A stretch of 64,000 nucleotides of DNA from Squalus acanthias (GCA_030390025.1 CM059432.1:31560001-31624000), one strand, 5' to 3'. Shown: positions 16,101-59,351, counted from the first letter of the stretch. Program-made: numbers and translations. Notes: generated from the letters alone by a model not told the origin.

Positions 16101-19100
16101 CACTTCCCCTTCTATTGCAGACAAGGTGGCGCACAACTGCTGGGAGCACCAGCAGATGGGTGGAAGGCAAGCCAGACTTCACGGAGCTGGAGGAAGCAGT
16201 TCTCGAAATAATTGGGGGGGCAGTCAAAGAGGCGAGCGGGGAAGTGGAAAGCATTGCAATGGACAAAGAGAAAGAGAGAGAGAGAAGAGAAAAAGAAACT
16301 GCTTCAGCTAATCTTGCCTTGTGGAAGTGCATCTTCAACTTTGATCAATAAGTAGTCCTCAACCACCAAGACAAATACAAAGGATGAATCATGACAAAGA
16401 AGGGTGTTTTCACCCCAAGAAACGTATAGATGAAGAAGGCCCTTCAATCCATTTGATCTCATCATTCCAGAATACCAAACAACCATCTTTCTTTTTACAG
16501 CATTAATGTCAACATGAACAGGACATTGGCTGAATGTTTCATTCAAAGGACGGCACCTATGATAGTGCAGCAGTCCCTCAGTACTGTACGGGAGCGTCAG
16601 CTTAGATTACGGTGTGGGACTTAAACCTACAACCTTCTGACATTGATGTGACAGTGCTACCAACTGAATCAAGCTACAGGAGAAGAGAGAATAGGAAACA
16701 AAAGCAAAGATCGTTTTTTTAATAAAAGGCAAAACACAACAATTCAAACACTGATGCTATCCAATTTGTTTTCCACAGCTGCAAGTATCTACCTGTCTAT
16801 TGATCTGTCCAGTGACTGACAACTTCCAGACAGTGATGCTTCAGCACTGCTGAACGGGTCCAACACCTGTGGTCAGAAAGAAAAGTAAACTTTGAGAAAC
16901 AGCCATCCTTGTGATCTTGCAGTTAAGAGATCTACAGATTAAACAAATTTCTGCTTCCACACTGCAACTACAGATGGGAATAAATGTAGAATAAAAGGTC
17001 AACTGAAAATGTTTGTACCTTTTGACCCTGGAGGGAATCCACTGGAATAAAAGGATGCAACTGTATAAATCTGTAAATTCTTTCTTGATAGATTAAAACC
17101 AGTGCCAATGTTATAGTTACACTCTTACCTTGCATGGGCTACAGTCTCCCCAAGGTATTTCTGTAAATAGTGGAACTACAGCAAGATAACCCAGCAAGCA
17201 GAAAGGTCTTCACCTGTGTGGAAAACATTACCTCTCTCATCCTGCTCTTTGGAGCCATGCACACACAAACTACTTTGGCAACTAAAGAGAATGGTTTTAT
17301 TTCTAATCATCTGCAACGATGAAGGTCCACCCACAACTACGAATGATTTATGGGATAATATGTACACAGGCCATTCATTCTCTGTCAATCAGCTGCATTT
17401 ATTTTGATAAATCTGCACTGCATATATATCACAATTGGTTCATTCTTTGATATGGATGTAATCACACATCACCTACTTGAAGCGAATTCAGTGATCATCA
17501 ACCCCTGCACTGTTACAGATATCAAGCATATTTGGCAATGCAGTGGGTAACGTGGAAGAAGAGTGCAGGAAACCAGTACATTTTGTTACCTAAATATCCC
17601 CTCATTCTTAGTTTTGAGGCCATTTAGGTGTCAGCCGTCGCTCAGTGGTAGCACTCTCATCTCTGAGTCAGAGGTTGCGGGTTCAAATCCCACTCCAGAG
17701 ACGAGCACAAAATCTAGGCTGACACTCCAGTGCAGTACTGAGGGAGTGCTACACTGGTGGAGGTGCCGTCTTTCAGATGAGACATTAAACCAATGCCTTG
17801 TCTGCCCTCTCAGGTGGACATAAAAGATCCCATGGCACTATTCTGAAGCGGAGATGCCGGTGTTGGACTGGGGTGGACAAAATTGAGAGGTCGCACAACA
17901 CCAGGTTATAGTCCAACAGTTTTATTTGAAATCACAAGCTTTCGGAACTATCGCTCCTTCCTCAGGTGAAGTAAATTGGATACAGAATCGTCAGAGCATA
18001 TATAGATGGAAAAAAAAGCATGTGTACTTTACAATTGCAGACCAATAAATTAAATCATCCTGACTATCTGCCGAGGTGTGATAAAGTTAATTAAGTCAGC
18101 CAGGAAGGTACCACATCAAAAGACATAGCAAGATACAACTGAGACAATGAGGTGAAGTCGCAGGGGTTCTAACGTGTCAAAAGCTGCCGTCTGTATGTAA
18201 AACGAAAAGCTTTAAAAAAAAAAATTTACTTTTTTACTGGGAAAATTTTTACTTTTTTACTGGGAATCACATCTGTGAACAAGCTAACGACGACTCGAGT
18301 CCGGATCACGTCATGTATCGTGACATAAACGATCTTGGGTTTATGTCACGATACATGACGTGATCCGGACTCGAGTCGTCGTTAGCTTGTTCACAGATGT
18401 GATTCCCAGTAAAAAAGTAAAAATTTTCCCAGTAAAAAAGTAAATTTTTTTTTTTAAAGCTTTTCGTTTTACATACAGACGGCAGCTTTTGACACGTTAG
18501 AACCCCTGCGACTTCACCTCATTGTCTCAGTTGTATCTTGCTATGTCTTTTGATGTGGTACCTTCCTGGCTGACTTAATTAACTTTATCACACCTCGGCA
18601 GATAGTCAGGATGATTTAATTTATTGGTCTGCAATTGTAAAGTACACATGCTTTTTTTTCCATCTATATATGCTCTGACGATTCTGTATCCAATTTACTT
18701 CACCTGAGGAAGGAGCGATAGTTCCGAAAGCTTGTGATTTCAAATAAAACTGTTGGACTATAACCTGGTGTTGTGCGACCTCTCACTATTCTGAAGAACA
18801 GGGGAGTTCTCCCCGGTGTCTTGGTCAATATTTATCCGTAAACTAACATCACTATTACAGATTATCTGGTCATTATCTCATTGCTATTTCTGGGGCATCA
18901 CTGTGCTCAAATTGGCTGCTGTGTTTCCCTACATTAAAACAGTGACTCTTAAATGTGTTCAAGTTTTCATTAGAAATAAGGGGCAGAGGAAATCATCACG
19001 AATGCATTTACAATAAATTACGCAGAGGAATTTTCGTCCCACTGCTTATGGTTGCTTCTTATATATTTATCAACTGCCATTGATCATGCTCAAAACAACA

Positions 19101-22100
19101 TAATGCTGTTTCAATTCTATTCAGTAACTTTGATTCCAGATCACAGTGTAAACTTGGCTCTGTTGATAACACTCTTGCCTCTGAGTCAGTGGATTATGGA
19201 TTTAAGCCCCAGGATTTGAGCTCACAATCTAGGCTAACACTTCAGTGCAGTACTGAGGTGTTGCTATATTGCCGGAGCTGCTGTCTTTCAGATAGCATTT
19301 GTCTGTTCAACTAGTTCAAGTGGATATTAAAGGTTCCACTGCATTATTCAAAAAGCGGGGAGTTCTCCTGCTGTTTCGGCAACACACCGGCTTCAAACAC
19401 CACAATAAACAGATCAACAGGTCCTCCATGTCATTTGCTGTTTGTGCTATTTACAAATTGGCTGCTGCATTTGCCTACATAACAACAGTGACTACACCAC
19501 TTCCCACCATTTGCCAATCTGAGTAATTACCTTTAACCTCTACTCCCTGTTTTGTAGCCAGCTTGCTATCCATTCTGCTACTATTCCCTTGACTTCACAT
19601 GTTCTGACCTTATTCATGAGTCTACTATGCGGTACTTATCGAAGACTATTTGGAAATCTAAATATACTACGTCTACTGAGTTACCCTTATCTACCCTTTT
19701 TGTTACTTCTTCAAACAATTCAGTAAGGTTGGTCAAGCATGACGTTCTCTTTTGGAATCTGTGCTGAATACTCTATTATAGTTTCAGTTTCTAGGTGTTC
19801 TAGATAAATCTGCTATGTATATAGAGAGACTAAAATCAATTAAACAAACCCTACAATCATTGCTTATCCAATCATGTGAGCTAACTCCCACTTCCCATTC
19901 CCTCTAACCCACCCTCAGTGGCTGCTCTTACAGTCACTATGTCCCTGCCCTCCTAAACACCATTTAACACCTCCCACCCTGCTTTCCAAAGCCCTTCTCT
20001 TTCATTATACTTTCCTCCCTAATTCTCCCAATCTCTTTGCTCCCCCTCACCCTCTTGGTTTCCGCTTTTGTCCTCTGTGCTATAAAGCACCAAGATGATT
20101 TTCTGTATCTGAGAGATACAAGATGCTATTTAATCACTGGTCTGTCTGTTAATAGTGGCAGAGAAAAAATGGGAATTGGTAAGCAGTAACTCATCAAATT
20201 TGTAGGGGCCGATTTTATGATATTGCACGTCCTACGGGGAGTACATCTCTGGGTTTCAGGGGCACACCCATCATGATTTTCCATCCATTTAATTTAATAA
20301 AAGGAAATAATGGGGTGCATGCCTGAATTCCCAGCAGCCAAAGCACCTTGCTGCAAACGCAATTTCATAAAACTGGCAGTGTTGTGAGGGGACAAGTCTA
20401 AGAGAAGGTGTACTCAGATTAAATCAGAAATAATCTTGATAAACTGCTCACATTTCAATCATGTGGTCTAATTTTTCCATGTAATGCACTGCAGACTGCA
20501 CGTCGCCTTACATTATAAAAGCTGAATATCGACATTAAGTACAAACCCTTCCAAACCTGAAAGTGAAGTAAAGTAAAGGGCTGGATTTTCAATGACCCGT
20601 GGAGTCGGGTTTGGAGGGGGGGGGGGGGTTAAAGTTGCAGATTCGGGGGTCCCAACCTCATCCCGACTCCATCCCGCCTCCATGCCAGTTTCTCTGGCGG
20701 CGGGTACCCGACCTGGTCTGAGACCCGACTCCCCGAGGCGGGAAGGGATTAGTGACAATTAACTGCCTGTTAACAGGTAGTTAACAGGCAGTTTTTTGCA
20801 TAATCCCTATTTTCAAAAGAAAAGTGTGGGCTTCCCGACAGGTGGCAACCACTCCAAGTTATCGGGGCGGGCCGTGGGTCTGCAGGGGTTGGAGGGGTCG
20901 ATATATCCGGTGGGCAGGTGAGTGATGGGTGCATGTGTGCAGAGGTAAGTGTGTAAGGTAAGTGCGAAGTGTTGGAAAAAGTTTCACTTACCTTAACTTC
21001 CTCCTGCAGGTGTCAGCCCTTCAGTTCTCGGGAGTTAGAAATCTCACCGGCACAGAAAGCAGGAAAGCCGTGGACCTGTCAAAAACAGCAGCCTTCTATT
21101 TTCTGTGCTGGAATGATTTCTAACTCAGCCTGAAAGGAAGGACTGAAGTTAGAAATCATATTGTGAGTGTTTCACAGCTTCACAGAGCTGTCAAACGCTG
21201 ATATTTCATCTGTCAAAAGCTCTTGACAGATGAAATGTCAGTCTGTGACGTCACCTGTTGCCGGGTGGCCCTTAATTGGCCTGCTGAGCCCACTGGGCGG
21301 GCTCAACAAGGTCAATCAAGGGAAAATACAGTGGGTTGGCCACATCTCGACGGAGGCGGGTTCACAAGCCAGAATGTGTGATTCCCGACCCCAACCCGAC
21401 TCCAACTTCAAAATCCAGCCCAAAGAGTCCGCTGGAAATAATGTTGAGGCACCACAGCAGAATTCCAATGACCATACAGCTATAGGACGAGCGTTCATCC
21501 CCACACAGTGGGGGTAATTTCTGCTTTGGGCGATAGTGCAAAACAGGCGATATTGGATCAGCAACCCATTATACATTTCTTCCGATTGAAGACAATGGAA
21601 ATTAAAATCGGGAAAGATGTGTTAAAATCAGAAAAAAATTAAAATCAGGTGGCTGATCCGATATTGCCTGTTTTACACTATCAACCAAACTCGAAATTAC
21701 CCCACGTGAGTTTTTATCAAAATCCCTTCCTCAGGGTCTCACCCGATATATTAACCTATGTTTTTCTTGCAAATCTTGGCTTTTTTTTTAAATTTGTTCC
21801 TGGGATGTAGGCTTGTGGTGAAGGTACTCCCATAGTGCTGTTAGGGAGGGAGTTCCAGGATTTTGACCCAGCGACGATGAAGGAACGGCGATATATTTCC
21901 AAGTCAGGATGGTGTGTAACTTGGAGGTGAACTTGGAGGTGATGGTGTTCCCATGTGCCTGCTGCCCTTGTCCCTCTAGGTGGAAGAGGTCGTGGGTTTG
22001 GGAGGTACTGCTGAAGAAGTCTTGGCGAGTTGCTGCAGTGCATCTTGTAGATGGTACACACTGCAGCCATGGTCCGCCGGTGGTGGAGGGAGTGAATGTT

Positions 22101-24725: not shown

Positions 24726-24762
<37 letters not shown>

Positions 24763-27700
24763 GAGAGAGAGAGGAGAGAGAGAGAATTTGTTTTGCAACC
24801 AAGTCCTCCCAGGCAGTCTCTGAAGACATTCAATGCAGCAGCATCAGAGGCGACTTTCAGACCTAATACTACTACTACCTTCATCACAATACTACTACTA
24901 CCTTCATCACATCTCCGTTGTAATAGTGGACCTGCAGCTGATAGTCAGCTATCCACTTGTGCTCCCGCCAGGTTTCACTGGCGTGTTTCACATCAGGCGT
25001 ACTTCACGTCGGAAAAGGGTTAAACTAGCTAAAATGTTTCAAAATGGCATTACAGAGCCAATTTAGGGCTTGTTAAGGGCTTTAATGGCCTCTCCCGCCT
25101 CTTGGAGGCGGGACGGAGTCGGAACCCCGCGACCGATTTTGTCAAAATTGCGTAGAGGCGGAATGGAGTCGGGATGGGGTCGGGACCCCCGAATCTGCAA
25201 CTTTAACCCCCCACACGCCTCCAAACCTGACTCCACGGGTCATTGAAAATCCAGCCCATTGTATCTGTCTTCACGGTAGAAGACACAAAAAACATTCCAG
25301 AAATAATGGGGAACCAAGGGTCTAGAGTGAATGAGGAACTGAAAGAAATCAGTATAAGTAAAGACATAGTACTGGAGAAATTAATGGGACTAAGTGGCGA
25401 CAAATTTCCTGGACCTGATGAGCTGCATCCTAGGGTTTTAAAAGAGGTAGCTGCAGAGATAGTGGATGCACTGGTATTAATCTTCCAGAATTCCCTAGAT
25501 TCTAGAACAGTCCCCAAGGATTGGAAGGTAGAAAACATAACCCCGCTATTTAAGAAAGGAGGAAGAGAAAAAAACAGGGAACTATAGGCCAGTTAGCCTG
25601 ACATCAGTAGTAGGAAAAATGCTAGAATCTATTATTAGGGATGTGATAGATAGTAGATTGGCGGTTAGGATCAGATCAGCCATGATCTTATTGAATGGCG
25701 GAGCAGGCTCGAGGGGCCGATTGGCCTACTCCTGCTCCTATTTCTTATGTTCTTATGTTCTTATGTGGTAACAGGGCACTTAGAAAATCATAATATGATT
25801 AGGCAGAGTCAACATGCTTTTCAAAAAGGGAAATTCTGTTTGACAAATCTGTTAAGAGTTTTTCGGAGATGTAACTAGTAGGATGGATAAGGAGGAACCA
25901 GTGGATGTGGTGTATTTGGATTTTCAAAAAGCATTCGATAAGGTGCCACACAAGAGGTTATTACACAAAATTAGGACTCATGGTATTGGGGGTAATATAT
26001 TAGCATGGATTGAGGATTGGTTAATGGACAGAAAACAGAGAGTAAGAATAAACGGGACTTTTTCAGGTTGGCAGGCTGTAACTAGCGGGGTCAGTGCTTG
26101 GGCCTCAGCTATTTGCAATTTATATTAATGACTTAGATGAAGGGACTGAGTATAATGTATCCAAGTTTGCTGATGATACAAAGTTAGGTAGGATAGTAAG
26201 CTGTGAGGAGGACGCACAGAGGCTGCAGAGAGATATAGACATGTTGACTGAGTGGGCAAGAACATGACAAATGGATTACAATGTGGGGAAGTGTGAAGTT
26301 AGCCACTTTGGTAGGAAAAACAAAAAAGCAGAATATTTTTGAATGGTGAGAGGCTGGGAAATGTTTGCACTCAGAGGAACCTGGGTATCCTTGTACATGA
26401 ATCACAGAAAGTTAACATGCAGGTACAGTAAGCAATTAGGAAAGCAAATGGTATGTTAGCTTTTGTTACAAAGGGATTAGAGTATAAGAATAAAGAAGTC
26501 TTACTACAATTATACAGGTCATGATGCGGAGATGCCGGTGTTGGACTGGGGTGGACAAAAATGAGAAGTCGCACAACACCAGGTTATAGTCCAACAGTTT
26601 TATTTGAAATCACAAGCTTTCGGAGCTTACGTGGCCCCTTCATTTAAATGTAGTCGTCTGCCATTGTAAGTTACACATGCATTGTTCTCTATCTATATAT
26701 GCTTTGTCGAGTCTGTATTTCTTTACTTCACCTGAGGAAGGGGCCACGTAAGCTCCGAAAGCTTGTGATTTCAAATAAAACTGTTGGACTATAACCTGGT
26801 GTTGTGCGACTTCTCATTTTTTTACAATTATACAGGGCATTGATGAGGCCACACCTGGAGTACAGTTCTGATCTCCTTACCTAAGGAAAGACATAGAGGG
26901 AGTGCAGCGAAGGTTCACTGGACTGGTTCCTGGGATGAGGGGATTGCCCTATGAGGAGAGATTGAGTAGACTAGGCCTATATTCATTAGAGTTTAGAAGA
27001 AGGAGATCTAATTGAAACATATAAAATTCTTAAGGGGCTTGACAGGGTTAATGCTGGGAAAATGTTTCCCCTGGCTGGGGAATCTAGAACACGAGGTCAC
27101 AGTCACAAAATAAGGGGTAGGCCATTTAGGACTGAGATGAGGAGAAATTTCTTCACTCAAAGGGTTGTGAATCTTTGGAATTCTCTATCCGTGGATGCTC
27201 AGTCGTTGAGTATATTCAAGACAGAGGTCGATAAATTTTTGGGAACAAAGGGAATTAAGGGATATGGGGATAGTGCGGGAAGGTGGAGTTGAGGTAGAAG
27301 ATCAGCCATGATCTTGTTGAATGGTGGAGCAGGCTTGAAGGGCCAAATGGCCTACTAATTTTGGACAAGTAGGTGTTCGCTATGAAGTATTTCTTTACAC
27401 AGAGGAAGTTCAGCAGCTGCTGCATGTTGCCAGGAAGGGTAGTTGTAGTGAGGACACTGGAATCATTTAAAAAGCCACAAGCTGTAATAGGTGATGGTAG
27501 GGTTGGTATTCACTTTTTCTATCCTCAAGCTATTTATTTACTTGGGTATGTGGGCATCGCTGGCAAAGCCAGTATTTATTGCCCATTTCTAGTTGCCCTT
27601 GCTCTGCTCCTTTAAGACCTTTCTAAAAACCCACATCTTTGACCAAGCTTTCGGTCACCCTCCTAATGTTTCCTTCTTTTTGCTGAGCATCTGTGGAAAA

Positions 27701-36700: not shown

Positions 36701-39700
36701 CTCCCTCCACCACCGGCGCACCGTGGCTGCAGTGTGTATCATCTACAAGATGCACTGCAGCAACTCGCCAAGGCTTCTTCGACAGCACCTCCCAAACCCG
36801 CGACCTCTACCACCTAGAAGGTTAAGGGCAGCAGGCGCATGGGAACACCATCACCTGCAAGTTCCCCTCCAAGTTACACACCATCCTGACTTAGAAGTAT
36901 ATCGCCGATCCTTCATCGTCGCTGGGTCAAAATCCTGGAACTCCCTCCCTAACAGCATTGTGGGAGTACCTTCACTACAAGGACTACAGCGGTTCAAGAA
37001 GGCGGCTCACCACCACCTTCTCAAGGGCAAGTAGGGATGGGCAATAACTGCTGGCCTTGCCAGCGACGCCCATATTCCAGGAAGGATTTTTTTTTAATTT
37101 CTATGATGCTATGATTCTATATGAGGACGATCCAAGTGTTGGGGGTTGTTGGGTGCAGGTAGGAACGTGAGCAGATAGTTTTAAACTTTGTGATGAAAAA
37201 AAATTCACGAGTTCCTCTCACTTGCCATTTGGGGGGGGGGGGGGAAGACAAAAGGAGCAGAGGAAATAGGTCAGATGAGGAGGACTGTCATCGAAAGGAG
37301 GAGTCTGGGATGTCAACACTTATATGTATGTCCGTGTGCTCTAAACTGAACATAAAATATATTGAAGAAAAATTAGCTATTATTTTTTCCAAAGGCAACT
37401 ATTTCTGCAGCTAGGGAAGGGCCTTGCTAGTCATTCAGAATAATAGCAAACGCTAAATGATATTCCTAAGTGGAACACACCCTCAGTAAGAAACTAGCCA
37501 GAGTCAACTGAAACAGATAATAAAGGAATGCTTTGATGTACATACACTGACATGGAAAAGGGAGGAAAGCCAGTTCTTTTAACTGTTGAAAACTGAGGAG
37601 GAGCTGGAAATCAAACTGAGAAACTCGAAACTTAGAATGGGATATAAACTGTGATTGTCAACATGAGCAAGTCGAGTAGCAGAGAATTCACTGACTATAA
37701 GCTTCCAGCTCTGCTGATAGCCAGAATGATTACAGCATTCTTGGCAGAGCTCCAAAACAATCAAGAGTAAAAGTAAACTGACTCAGGAATGCCCAGTGCT
37801 GCACCCATAAGAAGCACAGGACTAAACATTCTCCAAAGGCCTGAATTGGCAGTGTCCCTTTCCCTGTGAGGCCCATGCCATGTAGTCACTGAGACTGCAG
37901 CAAAGTGTCATGGCAGCAGTGTGAAATTTTTATGCCATATCCACTTTATAATAAACACAAAGGGTACAACTTAGAAATGTTATGTTTATGAGAGTAGACA
38001 GTGTTGGCAAGGCTGCATTTATTGCCCAGCCCTAGTTGACTTGAGAAGACAGTGGTGGGATAGACCACATCAGAGAGCACTCAGGTAACCACATAGTGTG
38101 AGACTGGAGTCACATGTAGGCTAACCAGGTAGTGGTAGGAACCAACTAGGCGTTTACAACAGTCCAGTGCCATTCATATTTACTTTTCTGGTGCTAGCCC
38201 ACAAATTACCAGATTTATAGAATTCAGCTTAATATGGTGGGATTTTAACTCGTGATCTCTGGGTTGCTAGTCAATTAACATAATCACAATACAGTAAACT
38301 CTTGTTTAAACGGCACTTAATCATCCAGAATACTTTAATAACCGGCAAAATAGATAACCGGTAATCTTGCCGAATCCATCCAGCACTCGTTTTGCCGAGT
38401 CCGAGTCTCCCGCGGTGGCCGAGTTAGTCAGTGGTTTTTATTTTTGTTTGTGTTAAAAATTACCTTGGTAGGTATACCTCTCTGTTATCCAGAATTTTTC
38501 ATCAAACGGCACCATCCTGGTCCCATAGGTGCCGGATAAAAACGAGTTTACTGTACTACTATCCTTCCAGGCCTGGGCTACACTTGAATTTTGAGCTGTA
38601 TAAAACCTGAGGTATTTTGCCTTATTGTCATTGGTTTTGGGACAGTGGGACTGTACCAGCCTCAAGCTGTTCCTCTCCCCCCGGTTATACTTCTCCCCCA
38701 AGGAGGCAATAGTTTAAATGAGAATCTGTCAGAATTCAAGACCCACAAAAGGTGGGTCTCCACTGCCATGAAACAACTACTTGTATAAATGTCCCACGGT
38801 ATTCCGCAAAGGGAAGTGGATGCTGAGCAGCAAGAAAAGAACAAAAATTGGGCAAAAAGATAGGTTTTGAGTGAGCTCTTATACAGGGGTTGGGGGTAAT
38901 ATATTAGCATGGATAGAGGATTGGCTAACTAACAGAAAACAGAGAGTCGGGATAAATGGGTCATTTTCAGATTGGCAAACTGTAACTAGTGGGTGCCGCA
39001 GGGATCAGTGCTGGGGCCTCAACTATTTACAATTTATATTAATGACTTGGATGAAGAAACCGAGTGTAATGTAGCCAAATTTGCTGATGATACAAAGATA
39101 AGTGGGAAAACAAATTGTGTGGAGGAAGCAAAGAATCTCCAAAGAGATATAGATAGGCTAAATGAGTGGGCAAAAATCTGGCAGATGGAGCATAATGTGG
39201 GAAAATGCGAGGTTATCCACTTTGGTTGGAAAAATAAAAAAGCAAATTATTATTTAAATGGGGAGAGATTACAAAATGTTGGGGAGCAGGCTTGGGGGAG
39301 AAATATAACCAGGGGAAGAGGAGCAGCATGAAGCTGGTATAGTACCACTGTCCCAAAACCAATGACAATAAGGCAAAATACCTCAGGTTTTATACAGAGG
39401 GATCTGGGGGTCCTCGTACATGAAACACAAAAAGTTAGCATGCAGGTACAGCAAGTAATTAGGAAGGCAAATGGAATGTTGGCCTTTATTGCAAAGGGGA
39501 TGGAGTATAAAAGTAGGGAAGTCCTGTTACAACTGTACAGGGCGCTGGTGAGATCACACCTGGAGTACTGTGTACAGTTTTGGTCTCCTTATTTAAGGAG
39601 GGATATACTTGCATTGGAGGCAGTTCAGAGAAGGTTCACTGGGTTGATTCCTGAGATGAAGGGGTTGTCTTATGAAGAAAGGTTGAGCAGGTTGGGCCTA

Positions 39701-51700: not shown

Positions 51701-54700
51701 TACAATTTAAACATTTTTTCAACAGGTTTATCTTTTTTAGATACTTTAAAGAAAGGTAAGTTTATGTTTAGCACCGTTAAAAAGTATAATTAATATTTTC
51801 AAAAATTTAAATTTTTGTTTGAAGTAGTTAATTTATGTAACTTATAATTATTTTTAAAATGTGATTTTTTTTTTAAATTTATTTGAAGTTTAAGTGCGGT
51901 TTTGGGGCCGATCTCCATTCATAGATTTGACAGGTCTTCCTGTCAAATCTATGAATGAAAATGCCCTGCTCCGATTGGCTCTCCATGGCCCACGTGATCC
52001 CAGGGGACGCTTCGAACTAACTGCGCCCCTGGGATACGCAAGCACTGCGCGCCGGCAGCTGGAGGAGGCCCAGGACCCGAAGTCCTCGTGGGCCCAAAGC
52101 ACAACTGCAGGCGCGGTAGGCAAGTACGCGCGCGATGCTTGCACCCGCAGGAAGCCGGAAAGCCGAATTTCTGGCCCAATGTAAACTTGTCCTGCTGTAA
52201 TTGCACTCTCCTGCCAGCGTGGTACTGCAGTTCCTTCACTGGTAGTAGAGTGTATTTGCGGTGTGACAAGCTTACATAAGTAGTTCCATTATAAAGATTG
52301 CACAAAGGAATTTATAATGGAAAAAGTTGACAGGAAGTGCATACTGACGCAAGATTATTAATATATTCACCTTATCTCATCTCTCGCAAATGTCCTTTAG
52401 CATTTCACACAATGGGTGACTGAACTGCAGTGCCTGTTGCTGTATAGGCAAACACGGTAGCCATTATGGGCACAGCAAGATCCCACAACAGCTATGACCA
52501 GTTAATCTGTTTTCACATGACACAGGTTGAAGGAGGAATGTTGACCAGGCCTGTAGGAGAACTCCTAGCTCTTCTTCAAATCTTTTAACATCCAACCAGA
52601 ACAGGCAGATGAAATTTCAGTTTCAAATCTTATTCAAAGTAGGGCACCGCCAACAATGCAGTAACTCTCGAACTTATGAGTTGAAATCTTTGGTAGCAGT
52701 TATGGGAGAAAAATTGGGTTGCTTTGCGCCTCCCGTTAGCGCCCCCAGCGGGGCGCAAAGCACCTAGCGCCTGGGCGAAGCGCCACTAACGCCTCCTGCA
52801 AAATTCAGCGGGAGGTTAGCGGCAGCGGTAGCTGGTAGCGCCCCGCGGCACTGCGTCTCTGGCGATGACGTCATCACCGTGCGCAGCGCCCCGGCCGCAA
52901 ACTTCAGTTGCGCCCCCTTGACCTATCGCCGCACGCTATGTCCAACAGGGTCAGGTTGCCGTTTTTGCAGCCGCGGCGGCTCAAGTTAAAGGGCAGGTGT
53001 CGGGCGCCCATTTTTTTTTTTGGCCGACTGCCAGCACCTGCCCCCTTCCCCTTTTTTATTCGGGGTGCCGGCCGCAATCGCTCAGCCCGGCACTCCTCTT
53101 GAGTGCCGGGCTGCTTTCCCGGCACCCCGCTCCCCGGTGGTCCAGCAGGGCCCCAGTGCGCGCAGTCAGGGGAGGGAGGCCTGCAATACCGCGGCGCTAC
53201 GTGCCGATGCACGTGGCGCTGTTGCACGTAGCGCTGCAATATTCACTTGTAGCGTCCCAGGAAGGAGGGGGAGTGCTTCCAGTAGCATCCCGCCTCCTGC
53301 TTGGGGCACTAACTTTTTCGGGGCGCTGGTGAAGTTGGCGCCCCCTTTAATTTTTCCCCCTCTCTCTTTAAACCAAAATGAGTGAAACTTGAATGTGAGA
53401 GATGTGACAAGCATTAAAGTGAGAGAATTTAAAAACTTAAACAGGGAAAAGGAAAGCAAAGAAGTGAATTGCCGAGCTCTAGTTTTCTGAGGTTTAATGA
53501 AGTCTGACAGAGGGATATACATTTAATTTAGAAGATTTTCCATGACTGTCCCTACCCCCATCCCGTTGGGAGGTTGCTATCTTTTAAAATGGGTCCTACT
53601 TCCCATTCTGCTGTTGATATAACAAAGATTTTGGCTTTCATCATTGGTCCTGCAGGATGTGTTCACATTCACTCTTGGGTAAATAGACTACTGTGGAAAA
53701 CATGGAAAGTACTCCAGTCTATGTGTCATAAGTTAATGAAATAAACAGTGACTGAGGTGCAGGGTCAACTCACCCTATAGTTGAATGAACTGTCGACAAT
53801 CACTTGGGCCAGGGACTGGATAATTCTCAATGCGGCATAACTCCCCACCCTCAGGAGAGGTGGGGGGAAATTGGAGGGGGAGGGAGGAGTGTTAATGTCA
53901 TTTAAGAATCAGTAAAAATAGCTTCTAACTAAGGAAAAGTGTAATGAGATGTCCTGTGCATGAAATAGTGAAGTGTTTCAGGACAATAACACCATGTATG
54001 GCATGATCTGGGCTGTGAGAGGAATAGCTTGCTGTGGTCAGGAAGTCAGTCTAGTGGAAATTAATTTGGGAACGGTGAGGGTTGAAAAGAGAAATGTTCT
54101 TAATGCAATTTGGCTCTCATCAGATTTGCTATTAAAAAGCAGGTGGATGATATTTAGTGCTTGAAAGTGATGCAGTCATTGAAAATGCTATGTTGCAGGG
54201 TGAGGTGCTAACCTTTTATTATAGAACACTCTCTTCTCATCTTCCAGGGGTTGTGCCACATTACTGAAACAAAAACTACAGTAAAAGAAAAAAAAACCAA
54301 ACCACACTAGTAGTCTGTATCAGATCATATCTCAAGGTGCTTTATCACTGTTGCATTGGTTTAGGGATGGCACTACGCCGGCCTAACGGTCCTCCATTGA
54401 TATTTTCACCAACCGGCATTGTTCATTAGAAGCCAAGCAGAAGTGAAGTTGGCGAATCGAGCGGCAGCTCCTCAAACAGAACAATGTAATTTGGGCAGTT
54501 TATATTAATAACTGCAGCCAATAGCAAGAGAACCACGTGGTCGCTATCAGCTGTAATTTTTAAACCATCAACATGCTGCATGAGCGAGAGAGCGAGCGTG
54601 TGAGAGAGAGAGAGCGAGAAAGCGATCAAGAGAGCAAGCGAGCGCAAGAGAGCGAGTGAGCAAGAGAGCGAGAGAGAGGGCAAGAGAGGAGGCAAGAAAG

Positions 54701-57133
54701 AAAGAGGGCAGGAGAGAGAGGGCGAGAGAGAGCGAGGACGAGAGAGGGCAAGAGAGAGGGCGAGCACGAGGGCGAGTGAGAGAGTGCGAGAGAGAGAGGG
54801 CGAGAGAGAGGTCGAGAGAGAGAGGGCGAGAGAGAGAGGACGAGAGAGAGAGGGCGAGAGAGGGCGAGAGAGAGAGGGCGAGAGAGAGAGGCGAGAGAGA
54901 GGGCGAGAGAGAGAGGGCGAGAGAGAGAGGGCGAGAGAGAGAGGGCGAGAGAGAGAGGGGCGAGAGAGAGAGGGCGAGAGGGCGAGAGCGAGGGCGAGAG
55001 AGAGGGCGAGAGAGAGGGCGAGAGAGAGAGGGCGAGAGAGAGGGCGAGAGAGAGGGCGAGAGAGAGGGCGAGAGAGAGAGGGCGAGAGAGAGGGCGAGAG
55101 AGAGGGCGAGAGAGAGAGGGCGAGAGAGAGGGCGAGAGAGAGGGCAAGAGAGAGGGCGAGAGAGAGGGCGAGAGAGAGGGCGAGAGAGAGGGCGAGAGAG
55201 AGGGCGAGAGAGAGAGGGCGAGAGAGGGCGAGAGAGAGAGGGCGAGAGAGAGGGCGAGAGAGAGGGCAAGAGAGAGGGCGAGAGAGAGGGCGAGAGAGAG
55301 AGGGCGAGAGAGGGCGAGAGAGAGAGAGAGGGCGAGAGAGAGAGGGCAAGAGAGAGGGTGAGAGAGAGAGGGCAAGAGAGAGAGGGCGAGAGAGAGAGGG
55401 CGAGAGAGAGAGAGAGAGGGCAAGAGAGAGAGAGGGCAAGTGAGAGAGAGAGAGGGCAAGAGAGAGCGGGCGAGAGAGAGAGAGGGCGAGAGAGAGAGAG
55501 AGGGCAAGAGAGAGAGAGAGGGTGAGAGAGGGCGAGAGAGAGAGAGGGCGAGAGAGAGAGAGGGCGAGAGAGAGAGGGCGAGAGAGAGGGCGAGAAAGAG
55601 AGCGAGGGCAAGAGAGAGCGGGCAAGAGAGAGAGAGAGGGCGAGAGAGAGAGGGCGAGAGAGAGAGAGGGCAAGTGAGAGAGAGAGAGGGCGAGAGAGAG
55701 CGGGCGAGAGAGAGAGGGCAAGAGAGAGAGGGCAAGAGAGAGACGGGAGAGAGAGAGAGGGCAAGAGAGAGAGAGAGCGAGAGAGAGAGAAGGTGAGAGA
55801 GGGCGAGAGAGAGAGGGCAAGAGAGAGGGCGAGAGAGAGGGCGAGAGCGAAAGAGCGAGAGAGAGCATGAGAATTCAAACAATAATCAGAGTTGTCACTA
55901 CTAATTGCATTAGAATGAATACTTAAAGGAAAATTGACCATTTAATCTTTAATGTTATGCTTATACAGCCTTTGCCTGCTGCTCCTAATTTATAGCCTCA
56001 AGTTACTCTCACATTGTAATCAACATTGCATCATGCCAGCTCAAAATGCACTCTCCAGAGACATCTCAGGCTGGGAGAGAAAATTATAATTGTTCATTAA
56101 GTGAACCTAATACATGGGGGCCCACCTCCTCAAGGGCCATTAGGGATGGGCAATAAATGCTGGCCTTGCCAGTGACGCCCACATGCCATGAACAAATTTA
56201 TTTTTTTAATTCCTAGAGGCAGTAGGTAAGTGCAAAGCAGGTGGATCTCCCTTGGGGCAGAGCATGAATCTGCTGGGTTTCAGCCCCATGCAACCTGTAG
56301 CCCAAACTCAGTGTGGGGTGAATGGGGAATGTAGGCAAGTCATCTGCTCCCATGACTAGATGAGGCAGGAGCATCGATTAGCTCTGTTGTGTCTTGACTG
56401 GCATGGGCATAACAATGGAAATAACCATGTGCCAATTTGATACAGGGTTAACAGCAGGGTATAGTAGCGAACAGAGTGCTACCCCTGTGCACTTGGAGGG
56501 GTGGAGTAGGGCGTCAGGATTTTCGTTCCCAGGATCATTTAAATGATCTTTACTCTTTAATGAAATCCTAGTAATAAAACTAGTAGCATCTTCTTTAGGG
56601 CATACTTTATGTTTTTTTAACACAAGTGCCTTCACCCATACACCACCGGGACCCCATTTCTCCAACTCCCTGTTGTGTAGTCGAAGGGCCCACTGCACCT
56701 AGGTTTCCCATCTTTTATAAGTCCAAAACCGGATGAAAAGAAAGCATTAAACAAAAAGCACTGTGCACATGCATAACATGGCTCTGTTCACAACCAGCTA
56801 GGTAACCGCCGTAATGGCACCCAGGGAAAAAACAAAACAAAACAGGCCACTGAGACCCACAAGAAAGGTTAGGATAAAGAAGGCATTTTGGCCCATTTGA
56901 TCTCTTCCAGAATACCTACCCTTTGCTTTCAAAAAGTAGACATAATGAGCCAAATCACCTCCCTCTGTGCTATAACCTCTACAGTTCTATCTTCCCATTA
57001 CAGCATCTAACAGTTTCCTAAATGACTTGTTTCTCTTTCGGACGCTGACTAGGCTGTGTGTTCCCAGTAAGTACTGGTTTTGTTTTACAAGTTTGAAAAT
57101 AAATGAAGGAGACAGAAGGATTTACTTACCCAT
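1058..57133 (-). CDS. MAP3K3-like: MAP3K3/MEKK3-like kinase gene (MEKK2/3 family), coding exons 1-10; gene continues past the left edge of the window
   Basis: Exons of 4+95+41+100+114+112+134+74+62+93 nt have compatible phases and join to [111 protein letters not shown]...[65 protein letters not shown]...AKSYPD...[22 protein letters not shown]. This is colinear with the MEKK3/MEKK2 N-terminal half as recalled. Exact orthology is not established. Confidence 0.92.
1381..2048 (+). mobile_element. 5'-truncated LINE 3' end (CR1/L2 superclade, Crack/Daphne-like)
   Basis: RT C-terminal peptide [28 protein letters not shown]...YS..AW, frameshifted; 3' end AATAAATGCTGGCCTTGCCAGC plus A tail; near-identical copies elsewhere in the window. 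Confidence 0.85.
3437..5178 (-). mobile_element. PIF/Harbinger-derived element with a decayed Myb/SANT gene
   Basis: Flanked by TTA/TTA; imperfect TIR (GGGGGGAATTTT / AAAATCCAGCC); minus-strand [15 protein letters not shown] at about 4680-4730. Confidence 0.65.
5488..6318. mobile_element. MITE with G-rich internal repeats
   Basis: Termini GGCCTGAATTTT / AAAATTGTCCCT; possible TSD GAT; same family as 59352-60699 in the opposite orientation (CCTGCCCACTTCCGGTTTTAACGGAGGCGGGA). Confidence 0.7.
7665..9660 (+). mobile_element. L2-clade LINE, 5'-truncated ORF2 (RT) with frameshifts
   Basis: Peptides [42 protein letters not shown] (YADD-like), [10 protein letters not shown]; ends in a (GTT)n tail. 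Confidence 0.9.
12215..12560 (-). mobile_element. Deu-domain SINE (internally deleted)
   Basis: Reverse complement of the same SINE: B-box GGTTCAAGTCCC, TAAAAGATCCCATGGCACTATTTCGAAG and an L2-like tail. Confidence 0.75.
13999..14060 (-). CDS. MAP3K3-like exon 9 ([20 protein letters not shown])
   Basis: aatcacag|C...G|gtaaga, 62 nt; phase 2 to 1; AKSYPD corresponds to MEKK2/3 RAQS(Y/F)PD. Confidence 0.85.
15350..16330 (+). mobile_element. PIF/Harbinger-derived fragment with an intron-containing Myb/SANT pseudogene
   Basis: TIR-like start [22 protein letters not shown]...(stops)...[21 protein letters not shown]|gtgaat, then intron, then ttgcag|..KVAHN..QMGG. Confidence 0.7.
16793..16866 (-). 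CDS. MAP3K3-like exon 8 ([25 protein letters not shown])
   Basis: ccacag|GTG...AG|gtagat, 74 nt; matches MEKK3 [25 protein letters not shown]. Confidence 0.93.
17932..17970 (-). ncRNA. Minimal type I hammerhead ribozyme (mirror copy, sense to the host pre-mRNA)
   Basis: Exact reverse complement of 18699-18737. Confidence 0.78.
18699..18737 (+). ncRNA. Minimal type I hammerhead ribozyme (PLE-associated)
   Basis: TTCAC-CTGAGGA-A-GGAGC(GATA)GTTCC-GAAA-GC-TT-GTGA: CUGANGA and GAAA core boxes, 5-bp stem II, stem I TCAC/GTGA, palindromic AAGCTT stem III. Confidence 0.8.
20578..21421. mobile_element. Harbinger-type MITE
   Basis: 12-bp TIR GGGCTGGATTTT; 3-bp TSD AAA. Confidence 0.8.
21511..21703. 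mobile_element. Short hairpin MITE
   Basis: About 55-bp imperfect arms: GGGGTAATTTC...GATAGTG.AAAACAGGC.ATAT.GGATCAGC and their reverse complement. Confidence 0.7.
21790..22118 (-). mobile_element. Same LINE family, 3' fragment
   Basis: Reverse complement of part of 1381-2048 ([26 protein letters not shown]). Confidence 0.8.
22314..22447 (-). CDS. MAP3K3-like exon 7 ([45 protein letters not shown])
   Basis: ccacag|GT...AAC|gtaagg, 134 nt; hallmark RSSPPPG and [16 protein letters not shown] motifs. Confidence 0.95.
22610..23082 (+). mobile_element. CR1 3' fragment
   Basis: [16 protein letters not shown] and the CR1 3' UTR. Similar fragments lie at about 2352-2500(-), 2678-2960(-), 6550-7040(+), 32140-32470(+), 35065-35350(-), 36270-36650(+), 50830-51235(-) and 62745-63205(+). 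Confidence 0.8.
24456..25257. mobile_element. Harbinger-type MITE inserted in CR1
   Basis: TIR GGGCTGGATTTT; TSD ATT; removing it rejoins the CR1 frame (LNKY-I-VSVFT); its right end is the reverse complement of the left end of the 20578 MITE. Confidence 0.85.
26519..26822 (+). mobile_element. Penelope-like element, short copy with inverted arm, inserted in CR1 ORF2
   Basis: TSD TACAATTATACAGG at 26505-26518 and 26823-26836. 85-bp inverted arms at 26557-26641 and 26737-26821. Same GGAGATGCCGGTGTTGGACTGGGGTGGACAAA tail as the 17849 copy. Confidence 0.87.
26727..26768 (+). ncRNA. Minimal type I hammerhead ribozyme
   Basis: TTCAC-CTGAGGA-A-GGGGC(CACGTAA)GCTCC-GAAA-GC-TT-GTGA. Confidence 0.78.
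30771..30882 (-). CDS. MAP3K3-like exon 6 ([37 protein letters not shown])
   Basis: ctgacag|GTG...ACAG|gtgagc, 112 nt; phase 0 to 1 fits both neighbours; SKSMGD and RKLS resemble MEKK3 SQSAGD and RHLS. Confidence 0.85.
30950..31150. mobile_element. Old, degenerate palindromic element, probably a second PLE-derived family with a decayed hammerhead
   Basis: Imperfect inverted arms (TCAGCATCTGA...AGGTTAA / TTAACCT...TCAGATGCTGA and TGCTGGAAAT / ATTTCCAGCA) flank GTT-CTGATAA...GAAA-TATT-AAC. Confidence 0.5.
31405..31830. repeat. Degenerate tandem repeat, about 75 bp period
   Basis: Recurring GGAATTAC..AGCC.GAC.GTGTGA.GGAGC.GGATTAACAA at about 31409, 31483, 31561, 31705 and 31788. Confidence 0.55.
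32715..32828 (-). CDS. MAP3K3-like exon 5 ([38 protein letters not shown], end of PB1)
   Basis: atatag|CTT...CAT|gtgagt, 114 nt; carries the LDKA...SSMKSLRI motif of the MEKK3 PB1 domain. Confidence 0.92.
34016..34115 (-). CDS. MAP3K3-like exon 4 ([35 protein letters not shown]1)
   Basis: ttttaaaag|G...GAG|gtacat, 100 nt; homologous to MEKK2 [13 protein letters not shown]...AFGQSMDLHYTNNE. Confidence 0.93.
34943..34983 (-). CDS. MAP3K3-like exon 3 ([14 protein letters not shown], start of PB1), GC donor
   Basis: tttttgcag|AGT...AAAAG|GCAAGT, 41 nt; homologous to MEKK3 SDVRIKFEHNGERR; phase 2 fits the next exon. Confidence 0.9.
36650..37090 (+). mobile_element. Same LINE family, 3' fragment
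   Basis: [35 protein letters not shown]...HHHLLKG and the shared 3' UTR. Confidence 0.85.
38292..38553. mobile_element. Tc1/pogo (Tigger-like) MITE
   Basis: TA TSD; TIR CAGTAAACTC...CGGCAC (about 25 bp, imperfect). Confidence 0.8.
38889..41008 (+). mobile_element. CR1-clade LINE 3' part with nested MITE (39749-40642) and a templated insertion (39279-39397)
   Basis: [43 protein letters not shown] tail at about 41000. Confidence 0.92.
39749..40642. mobile_element. GC-rich MITE (GGGGTA.AAATT TIR) inserted in CR1
   Basis: Terminal GGGGGTAGAAATT / AATTTTTACCCC interrupts the CR1 at E-T-Y-K-I; related to 52704-53360. Confidence 0.75.
41738..41832 (-). CDS. MAP3K3-like exon 2 ([32 protein letters not shown])
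   Basis: tttcccag|AT...CAG|gtaaga, 95 nt; matches the MEKK3 start [11 protein letters not shown]. Confidence 0.93.
42356..44580. repeat. CpG/G-rich minisatellite, 20-bp unit GGGAGGGTCAGT(C/G)GATCGCG, about 100 copies
   Basis: Direct tandem repetition with variable G-run length. Confidence 0.97.
45040..45900 (-). mobile_element. L2 3' fragment interrupted by a Crack-like LINE piece, itself interrupted by a CR1 tail
   Basis: Minus-strand [22 protein letters not shown]. The L2 resumes at about 45798 after the insert at about 45405-45797; the CR1 tail is at about 45484-45640. Confidence 0.7.
46465..49938. mobile_element. Harbinger-type MITE hosting the nested CR1 pair
   Basis: TIR GGCC(A/C)GGATTTTGC; TSD ATG; the CR1 block is flanked by CATTC repeats (46736-46740, 49451-49455). 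Confidence 0.7.
46745..49450 (-). mobile_element. Two nested CR1 LINEs (copy B at about 47213-49020 inside copy A)
   Basis: Minus-strand peptides [49 protein letters not shown]. Copy A rejoins across B (cattcttgt|aaatcttttctgcacc). Confidence 0.88.
51414..52177. mobile_element. Harbinger-type MITE
   Basis: 17-bp perfect TIR GGGCCAGAAATTCGGCT; CpG-rich ends and AT-rich core. Confidence 0.8.
52704..53360. mobile_element. GC-rich MITE related to 39749-40642
   Basis: Shares GCGCCTCCCGTTAGCGCC and ATGACGTCA subterminal motifs; termini GGGAGAAAAATT / AATTTTTCCCCC. Confidence 0.7.
54590..55866. repeat. Purine-rich compound microsatellite [(GA)n GGC/GGCA]
   Basis: About 1.27 kb of GAGAGAGAGGGC-type units. 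Confidence 0.97.
57130..57133 (-). CDS. MAP3K3-like coding exon 1 (ATG G); the exon extends as 5' UTR to an acceptor at about 57215
   Basis: Minus strand reads agc ATG G|GTAAGT. It supplies the G that completes GAT (Asp2) with the next exon, the same M-D split recalled for MAP3K3. Upstream is a polypyrimidine acceptor, ttcttgtttgttcag|cag. Confidence 0.8.
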
Positions 57134-58303
57134 GCTTACTGTCAACATCAGGACAAGCTTTCTGTGAGTCAAAGTAGCAAATTCTGGGCTATCTTCCCAT
57201 CATGAGGTCACCCTGCTGAACAAACAAGAAAGTATATATATTTATTAATACAGTACAGCACATAAAGCAACATCTTGTTTAAAAGAATGCTTATCAATGT
57301 ATTTGTTCAAAAGAAAGATTTTTATTTTAAGAATGAATCTATTTTTAGAGAATTTTCATCAATATTGCATGTTGTAATATGGATTTTAAGCCAATGTGAG
57401 AGATGTTAGTGTTGGGGAAGGGAGCCCTTTTCAGTTACTGGTAGCTCAGGGATAGCACAGTTAGATGTAAAGTTCCTTGTACCTCCTACCTCATACTGTA
57501 GAGCGGTAGCTTCAGGTTCAGTCAGCCGTATGACCCTACTCCTCATCTGACAGGTAGGAGGTGACCAGAGCTAGCAGGAAATAGTTCAGCCACTAAATAT
57601 TCTTGTGTCATTGTATAAAAGAGGAGCAGGGGATGAGAAGGGAGAGAAAGCACTCCATCTCATCAAAGATGGGGATTAACATTCAAAGATCAGTGAGGTC
57701 TCCCAGTGTTCTGGTCAACATTTCTCCTTCAAACAATACCACCAAAAAGCAGATTAACTGGTCATTTGTCTCACTGGTAGTTGTGTGGCAATGTTGGAGC
57801 AGAATGGTGTGTTAAAAACAGTCACTTCACTACATGAAGTGTTTTGAGACATTTCAAAGATACGATAAAGCAATGTCAATACAAGAATTATTATCCAATA
57901 TTTTAGTTAATATGGGAACGCAGCATGAAACATGAGGAAGGGGAGAGGCAGCACCACGAATTCTTAGAATATCGATTCAAATGTACACTGTGCGTCATTT
58001 ATACAAATTCACACTCCCAGACAAGTTTCTCCCAGCAGGAATGCGTATCGAGAATTTAGGCGTGAAGGTCAGTGGGCACAATGGGATATACAGTCATTTT
58101 GATTTTAAAATTTTATTCTTATAAATGCAAGGAACATCACCAGATCCCCATTGGCGTAATGTAGTAAGGGCACTGGCCGGTGCAGCACTAAGCCGTGGGG
58201 ACCGGGAAAGTTCTAGGTTCCATCAGTGGACTGTGCTGATCTCAGTTGGAGCAGTAATTGCTATGCTACAATTAGCTTCAGTGCCCTGAACTAGATTGGA
58301 GGA

Positions 58304-58462
58304 TAGTAGCCATGATGTGGAGATGCCGGTGTTGGACTGGGGTGGACAAATGTGAGAAGTCGCACAACACCAGGTTATAGTCCAACAGTTTTATTTGAAA
58401 TCACGAGCTTTCGGAGCGCTGCTCCTTCGTCAGGTGAAGTGAAGAGGTGTTGTGCGACTTCT
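58304..58462 (-). mobile_element. Penelope-like element, minimal copy (hammerhead plus tail plus 17-bp inverted end)
   Basis: TSD TAGATTGGAGGA at 58292-58303 and 58463-58474. Same tail and pLTR sequence as the other two copies. GGTGTTGTGCGACTTCT at the right end inverts 58355-58371. Confidence 0.85.
58401..58438 (-). ncRNA. Minimal type I hammerhead ribozyme with C at the cleavage position
   Basis: Minus strand TTCAC-CTGACGA-A-GGAGC(AGC)GCTCC-GAAA-GC-TC-GTGA. Confidence 0.8.
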
Positions 58463-59351
58463 TAGATTGGAGGAAGGGAAGAGGAAAAAAAATCAGTCAG
58501 GATTTCTGCTCTTGATGGTAACCCTGCCTTGCCTGCTGGAAAGCCCATGGGGTGGGGGGGGGGGGACTTACCCACTCGCTTGCCGCCCTAATCTGGCCGA
58601 CTGCAATTTTAAGTTGCAGGCAGCAAGAACACCTGCTGGAAGCCGGCGGAGTCCTTCTTTAAATATGCAGATCAAGCTCCGGCGACGTTGTCGTGGACCA
58701 ACTGCTATTTTTATCAGGGGCCTGAGCAGCGGAGGTTTCCCCGCCAGGCCAAAGCTGTCAGGAGCTGTATCAAGTGCCGGAAGAGGTCCAGTAAGGAAAT
58801 TTTCTTCAATTTATTTGAAGTTTCCTTGTGGGCCAGGAGTAGCAGTCCAAGCCCCACAAGGAAACCTTGAGCCTTCCCTGCCCCAGACTTCTCCACCCCG
58901 ACCACCCCCGATTCCCATCCTGAGCTGCTCTGATCCACTTACCCCTGGTCTCCAGCAGTGACCTCTGAGCTGCCCAATTTTAACAGCCAGGCAGTCGTTT
59001 CCCACCAACTTCCCAGCCGTTTTGGTAGGGATGTTGGCAAGCGGCAAACAATCGGTCGAGCCTCCCGGTTACCGCTCCCAGACGAGCTAGCTGCTCATTG
59101 GGCCACGTTCCAGCCCCGTAGTTAAAATCAACCCCCCATGTGTATGTAGACTGGGTGTGGTGGACTCCATAGCTGAACAATCTGCAAACACATCTCCTTT
59201 GATGCCATTTAATCAGACATTCTGTTTCTATTCCTGGATTTTAAGAAACAAAAACTTTGTTGGAATGTGTAATAGGCTTAGCTTAGTAACTTTTAAAATA
59301 AGAATAAGTAAGATTAAATTATTGTAAAGCTCCCTCTATCTGCAAACACAT

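Follow-up and report, generated by a model that had tools for sequence, protein, structure and literature searches.

Two-armed insertions of a Penelope-like retrotransposon in Squalus acanthias and their probable origin by twin priming

How Penelope-like elements (PLEs) complete their insertion, and where their inverted repeats and short tails come from, has been left open, with antisense self-priming, resolution by the endonuclease (EN) and "steps yet to be validated" named in those parts of the literature that are compared here (PMC3846280, PMC8557442, PMC11167929). Three copies of such an element lie in a 64,000-nucleotide window of the Squalus acanthias genome (GCA_030390025.1 CM059432.1:31560001-31624000; the window is the whole stretch analysed, and positions are counted from its first letter). 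Judged by sequence, they are 5'-truncated copies of a Penelope-like retrotransposon that is abundant and young and has an open reading frame (ORF) for a reverse transcriptase (RT) and a GIY-YIG endonuclease. Their two-armed form, a tail followed by an inverted and a direct arm within one target site duplication (TSD), is probably best explained, as a whole, by twin target-primed reverse transcription (TPRT) that starts at either end of a 12-bp staggered cut predicted to be symmetric. Layout, hammerhead and the two RT start sites have been published (sections of PMC8557442, PMC3846280, PMC4209133, PMC11167929); no report tying inverted Penelope copies to twin priming, a palindromic 12-bp target, a cap-derived G or mixed arms was found, in a search that had older Penelope papers, Repbase/Dfam and the supplements of PMC11167929 outside its range.

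The EN-bearing Neptune and Nematis PLEs, in the portion of PMC8557442 compared here, resemble the shark family in having a single ORF, a telomerase-like RT, a CX2-5CxxC linker and, at the C terminus, a GIY-YIG domain, as well as partial tandems, an inverted 5'-truncated copy, a 30-40 bp tail at one end and a hammerhead in the pseudo-long terminal repeat (pLTR). Unlike them, the shark family shows no microsatellite targeting and uses a palindromic site with a 12-13 bp TSD; its clade is predicted from the linker. Penelope of Drosophila virilis and its counterparts in Adineta vaga likewise form tandems flanked by inverted repeats, with a 31-37 bp tail, a TSD and a promoter inside the pLTR (TATA/Inr-like in A. 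vaga) in the passages at hand (PMC2377424, PMC3846280): Drosophila Penelope has inverted repeats plus a 34-bp repeat (PMC2377424), and rotifer PLEs have an inverted pLTR with a 31-bp tail and TSD (PMC3846280). They differ in their far lower copy numbers and in the origin proposed for their inverted repeats, namely self-priming with antisense RNA as template.

With PAc, a Poseidon element of Anolis carolinensis, both target strands were nicked and extended, two adjacent internal RT starts bounded the tail, and uncleaved RNA was used (Frangieh et al. 2024, PMC11167929, in the sections cited here). Two start sites bounding the tail, an AT-rich target and a predicted N-terminal dimer are common to PAc and the shark family. 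PAc belongs to the Penelope/Poseidon clade, and its hammerhead overlaps the ORF start with RT starts ~111-118 nt inside the ORF, whereas the shark sites lie at or before the ATG. Within the same sections, inverted copies were unexplained and no strand bias was found.

In human LINE-1 (L1) twin priming, a second target 3'-OH primes a second cDNA, the TSD is kept, ends are joined and extra G occurs at capped 5' ends (PMC11702581, in part), all of which resembles the mechanism proposed here. The L1 second primer anneals upstream of the first cDNA and the pieces barely overlap, whereas each shark arm begins at a fixed site, with 40 nt between the two sites, and both arms cover one region, which yields an inverted duplication in more than half of the shark-family copies. 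L1-type twin priming proper was rejected on the almost complete overlap of the arms and their fixed starts; the two work alike but are not the same.

A short stem I, an extra base before stem II and a palindromic stem III are shared with the minimal hammerheads that metazoan PLEs carry (Cervera and De la Pena 2014, PMC4209133) and with non-LTR retrozymes (bioRxiv 10.64898/2026.07.22.740005), and facing hammerhead pairs 100-700 bp apart on opposite strands are already noted in the parts of PMC4209133 used here. Those retrozymes are tandem and non-coding, whereas the shark copies are truncations of a coding element.

The element and its hammerhead

Exact pLTR-end motifs number 98,841 and exact tail motifs 33,353 in the 3.71-Gb genome (reversed controls, 0), with 549 exact tail-to-ORF junctions. 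Extension of the best relatives of copy 1 led to a full-length natural copy, L031, which comprises a 689-nt 5' pLTR, the tail, an intact 892-amino-acid ORF and an identical 3' pLTR inside a TSD. Copy 1 (17836-17848) and L031 (L031:4322) occupy the same position of the same host repeat, resembling a short interspersed nuclear element (SINE). Because the tail sequence leads into the ATG in L031, the tail is the 5' untranslated region (UTR), which begins at site E, where the pLTR ends, and reaches to site T, the ATG.

The ORF contains an RT domain (RVT_1, PF00078; E 1.4e-8). The AlphaFold2 model of its product (predicted local distance difference test [pLDDT] 89) has telomerase RTs (TERT) as its top eight Foldseek matches (E 7.6e-9), and a sequence search of solved structures gave a single weak RT match (E 0.89). 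Residues 735 to 892 match the GIY-YIG family PF01541 at E 2.2e-4, with 21.9 bits falling slightly below the 22.6 cut-off, and match the corresponding part of P0025, which passes that cut-off, at E 2e-25. The linker motif C-X4-C-X2-C, present in P0001, fits the CX2-5CxxC pattern before GIY-YIG that separates Neptune/Nematis from Penelope/Poseidon (PMC8557442, in the passages used) and points to Neptune or Nematis. It points away from Penelope/Poseidon, in which this linker zinc finger is absent. The closest named relatives are shark proteins with 81-94% identity. Two host gene models fused to pieces of the ORF family (P0016 and P0017, a shark epsin-2 isoform at 94% identity and a turtle protein) probably reflect gene-prediction read-through into insertions.

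The first-pass annotation had proposed, from the window alone, a recently mobile Penelope-like or retrozyme family with several subfamilies. The longest copies do lead to an RT plus GIY-YIG ORF, with no linkage to a DDE transposase or CR1 ORF seen. Recent mobility is borne out by tandem units that differ by 0-3 changes per 3 kb and by intact 892-amino-acid frames in several fetched copies, and sequence comparison supports several subfamilies. The term retrozyme does not hold: the copies are truncated products of an autonomous coding element, and copy 1 retains the last ten ORF codons. A non-LTR retrozyme was likewise rejected, as the family consists of dispersed coding-element truncations and of tandems of the full 3.1-kb unit, with no tandem short non-coding hammerhead units. 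Partial or full tandems, in L031 and others, create the pseudo-LTRs with a period of ~3,138 nt. At L341-L342 (G000:C2:211,212,500-211,224,500) and L343-L344, near-identical units of 3,138 nt form arrays that exceed four units, accompanied by a two-armed copy with both arms over one unit; such arrays and over-unit arms suggest a circular or multimeric RNA template. Two loci (L068 and L077) carry an identical unrelated sequence after the tail, which may be the ORF start of another subfamily.

The pLTR is ordered as a TATA-like box, an initiator-like A (+1) 30-32 nt further on, a hammerhead from +4, AATAAA, site E at about +89 and the ATG at about +128, and the TATA-to-+1 spacing is maintained in the main subfamilies. 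The hammerhead is of the minimal type I by its conserved core and paired stems I-III, and its self-cleavage is predicted. Pairing was retained over 23 variants: 97.8% of cells were paired, and slid partners gave 23-48%; a stem I change from C-G to U-A in 8 of the 23 possibly reflects one event. In Rfam, nothing in the window matched at the gathering score, and near copy 1 no hammerhead match had E <= 10; the matches returned there are hairpin artefacts that stem from the inverted repeat. Folding z-scores for the single strand did not reach significance. Only 5 of 114 arm ends fell in the bin of the predicted cut; the absence of a pile-up there ruled out short arms that start at the hammerhead cut.

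Layout, target sites and arm ends

The window copies had been taken to show that the family always inserts as tail, inverted arm and direct arm. A census of C1:1-3,080,702, in which every insertion that bore an exact end or tail motif was classed, partly by hand, corrects this: 43 of 73 were two-armed with a tail, 20 had a single tail-less arm (15 of them with a script-found TSD of at least 10 nt), 3 had a single tailed arm and 7 were unclassed, and two-armed copies, which bear more motifs, are over-sampled in these figures.

TSDs were 12-13 nt long in 101 of 139 two-armed copies. The target consensus is pseudo-palindromic, C-N3-G-N-C and G-N-C-N3-G enclosing 12 AT-rich nucleotides, and the matrix of 52 distinct 12-nt sites resembles its reverse complement, with a correlation of r = 0.84 where the best of 5,000 permutations reached 0.58. 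A single host site was used six times, three in each orientation. With a palindromic target used in both orientations, the cut looks symmetric, and the asymmetry between E and T is thus not set by the DNA. Reused sites in host repeats represent hot spots that fit the target motif. Tailed copies at L142, L144 and L189 stand beside unusually long apparent duplications of 28-57 nt in the same host repeat.

Two-armed copies with a TSD of at least 10 nt almost always carried one tail (137 of 141; 4 had none and 0 had two), in a sample that is largely tail-anchored, a kind of sampling that favours two-tailed finds. Outer ends were ragged, with offsets of 0-20 at T and -5 to +8 at E, and microhomology was in excess at E (mean 1.5 versus 0.6 nt).

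Inner ends clustered at +1. Among the 87 arms that reached the +1 bin, 27 stopped there, at 0.031 stops per nt versus 0.002-0.009 in four other bins, or about three to fourteen times as many per base. Genome-wide, G preceded +1 in 3,679 of 36,670 cases and A in 555; at neighbouring positions the corresponding counts were 695 (G before +2), 1,127 (T before +2) and 548 (G before -1). An extra G at +1 is as expected from copying of a cap, which would place a capped start at +1; extra G at full-length L1 5' junctions has been read as capping in the portion of PMC11702581 used here. Both arms carry the extra G at the junction in L346; in L345, both end at +1 with it, bear two different stem II alleles and meet in a blunt joint.

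Arm lengths were compared in 64 distinct two-armed copies (61 from C1 and 3 from the window), reduced to 61 when 3 without a usable anchor were dropped. L128, which duplicates L127, and L166, which spans several units, were not counted. The tailed arm was the longer in 21, the tail-less arm in 37, and 3 were equal. Both arms were short in 27 copies and long in 26, and 8 were mixed. From this coupling, the two primers seem in most cases to draw on one RNA, or on RNA of one class. An independent jump of each arm from the capped 5' end to the 3' repeat is disfavoured by arms that are short or long together, also in the older lineages (26 both short, 14 both long and 3 mixed); in the lineage of copy 1 the counts were 1, 12 and 5, respectively.

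Arms could also differ in sequence. Alignment was possible for 129 of 139 two-armed insertions, and in 27 of the 129 the arms differed at recurring non-CpG alleles, both of which recur elsewhere. A linked two-site haplotype differed between the arms in three insertions, in both directions.

Origin of the inverted arms

Under twin priming, the 892-amino-acid protein would nick, as a dimer, both strands of the pseudo-palindromic site 12 nt apart. One 3'-OH would then prime at site E, aided by 1-3 nt of pairing, and the other at site T, ~40 nt further 3' at the ATG. Both primers would copy sense RNA through the uncleaved hammerhead. On capped mRNA, synthesis would run off at +1 and add a base across from the cap; where the RNA is longer than one unit (through read-through, as a multimer or as a circle), it would continue into the ORF for up to several units. 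Joining of the two cDNA 3' ends, which would share 0-3 nt of microhomology or enclose a short insert, would come last, and a single priming end would leave a single-armed copy. Both arms would usually derive from one source RNA, and from two in about a fifth of cases. The layout, TSDs, target symmetry, one-tail rule, end pile-up and mixed alleles are observed; the nicks, dimer, cap and order of events are what we infer from them.

The first-pass annotation had argued for a second RNA-templated priming event from the opposite nick, starting further 3' on the RNA. That proposal is probably right and is supported by the arm lengths, the +1 ends with extra G, the heteroallelic arms and the one-tail rule. 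A model of residues 1-320 as a dimer scored 0.51 versus 0.00 for the best of three controls, with run agreement of at least 39% of contacts and pLDDT of at least 58. Among solved homodimers, 21 of 30 from microbes and 17 of 29 from eukaryotes attained the mark applied (animals, 7 of 16; those lacking an older solved relative, 1 of 7); among single chains, 0 of 23 and 0 of 30 did so. The model supports a predicted dimerisation of the ORF protein. A more specific scheme, a symmetric, integrase-like double TPRT, is tentative: a homodimer would make the fixed 12-bp palindromic cut, its RT sites would be licensed for E and T (never two at T), and two RNAs would be carried, perhaps paired via the palindromic stem III like the retroviral RNA dimer.

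Several observations weigh against twin priming or blunt its support. The two arms vary strongly together in length (Spearman 0.77; among 26 long pairs, 8 differ by no more than 20 nt), as fold-back also predicts, and stem II is identical in 55 of 73 arm pairs versus 0.105 expected. Discordant alleles lie mostly in a short GCA repeat, where recurrent slippage or gene conversion could explain them. The anole protein had no strand preference for the start site in vitro and so does not account for the one-tail rule. Several junction "inserts" could be templated by nearby element sequence, and of 30 G cases sampled, 16 have a joining partner that could supply the G and 11 have one that could not; since control sets had similar partner-unexplained shares, the cap argument rests on absolute counts. 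The putative +1 start itself is placed by the spacing of motifs and by the junctions; four contig sets presumed to be RNA, aligned to one unit, gave no start cluster, although contigs do not reveal starts or strand. Among 30 ORF-start loci, no beginning fell exactly on +1 (the closest lay at +3, -10 and -12), so long products need another template. Census and junction samples came from C1 only and were chosen by exact motifs.

Near-equal arms and palindromic junctions, as in copy 1, whose arms are 100% complementary and differ in length by 8 nt, would also follow if one target-primed cDNA snapped back, or an antisense RNA primed itself, and the second arm were a DNA-templated copy. Most arm pairs are indeed identical save for private changes, and self-priming on antisense RNA has been proposed for rotifer elements (PMC3846280, in part). 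A single snap-back, however, makes the first arm always longer, whereas here either arm may be the longer. It must also halt exactly at the E site of single-armed copies, or invent a tail; arms with different recurring alleles and the double extra-G junctions of L345 and L346 are left unaccounted for, and an antisense template would give no run-off at the sense +1. We consider fold-back improbable as a general origin, while a hybrid, in which two primings are followed by fold-back of the longer cDNA, is possible for some near-symmetric long copies. The tail had been thought to exclude fold-back by itself; it is insufficient, because the tailed arm could be made first, and what stands against fold-back are the extra-G ends, the heteroallelic arms and the two-way length asymmetry.

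It is less probable still that a double-stranded DNA intermediate of more than one unit was resolved by the endonuclease with a cut at E on one side and at T on the other, leaving the tail as a cutting scar. Craig et al. 2021 attribute the tail to EN-mediated resolution (PMC8557442, in the portion used), the fixed stagger and palindromic target resemble integrase reactions, and multi-unit tandems exist. Yet both outer ends are ragged, with the microhomology excess at E that priming predicts, the inner ends are RNA-type run-offs, and the RT starts bounding the tail were mapped in vitro (PMC11167929, in part). Two separate insertions in one hot spot, later rearrangements or assembly artefacts are very unlikely indeed. 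Hot spots in host repeats are reused and long perfect inverted repeats are hard to assemble, but most structures span only 150-400 nt, the arms share a subfamily far above chance (the stem II comparison above), a single TSD encloses the whole structure and the tail is on one side only; the last two points largely refute separate insertions.

Copies in the window and implications

The three insertions lie where the first-pass annotation had placed them, each with its own 12-14 bp TSD and a tail; random flank pairs shared a word of at least 11 nt in 0 of 600 trials. The TSD of copy 1 (13 nt, of which 2 are shared with the element end) spans 17836-17848 on the left and 18784-18796 on the right (both plus strand). 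On the minus strand follow the tail (17849-17883), whose sequence precedes the ATG in L031, and the 447-nt tailed arm (17884-18330), which holds the ORF 3' end, the 3' UTR, the promoter motifs and a hammerhead at 17932-17969. The 455-nt tail-less, direct arm (18331-18785, plus strand) is 99.3% identical to the L031 pLTRs. It begins with the final ten RT-EN codons and stop (18331-18363), followed by the TATA-like box (from 18665) and initiator-like +1 A (18697), a putative transcription start by motif spacing and the arm-end pile-up with extra G. Its minimal type I hammerhead (18700-18737), with a 4-bp stem I, a 5-bp stem II and a palindromic AGCU stem III, has its predicted cut after 18733, and AATAAA (18743-18748), invariant in 23 of 23 variants, is a candidate polyadenylation signal; all of these are on the plus strand.

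Copy 2 is bounded by a 14-nt TSD (26505-26518, plus strand, and 26823-26836). Its tail (26519-26561) and short tailed arm, together 26519-26639 on the minus strand, end inside hammerhead stem II, and its tail-less arm (26644-26822, plus strand) has a complete hammerhead at 26728-26768. Copy 3 has a 12-nt TSD (58292-58303, plus strand, and 58463-58474), a tail reaching a few bases into the ORF (58304-58352) and a tailed arm with a hammerhead at 58401-58437 (tail and arm, 58304-58446, minus strand), and a tail-less arm of 17 nt (58446-58462, plus strand). The arm lengths of 447, 85 and 17 first assigned to the inverted arms thus stand as the length common to both arms; in copy 3, 17 nt is the tail-less arm and the tailed arm is ~94 nt. 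The CUGANGA...GAAA core is present in each copy, complete on both arms in copy 1, on the direct arm only in copy 2 and on the tailed arm only in copy 3. That the copies sit in three different host repeats holds for copies 1 and 2, whose flanks are abundant repeats (74-114 of 359 fetched loci match) that we take to be SINE and CR1-type, and not for copy 3, whose flanks match 0 and 1 locus. Their common orientation is as observed but unremarkable (p = 0.25), and so are three copies in one window, because ~1.7 exact end motifs are expected per 64 kb. Other inverted repeats in the window (38596-39397, 16518-17801 and 5239-5433, with arms of 107, 91 and 95 nt, respectively) are unrelated to the family and possibly miniature inverted-repeat transposable elements or paired SINEs.

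PLEs are the closest mobile relatives of telomerase, and in the shark family young insertions number in the tens of thousands and many ORFs are intact, with which the open step of Penelope insertion becomes directly testable. The junctions speak for two primings with sense RNA as template, and they allow exact predictions of the target motif, the stagger, the start sites and cap dependence. For RNA-templated insertion tools, a protein able to cut with a defined stagger and to prime from both ends would be relevant as well.

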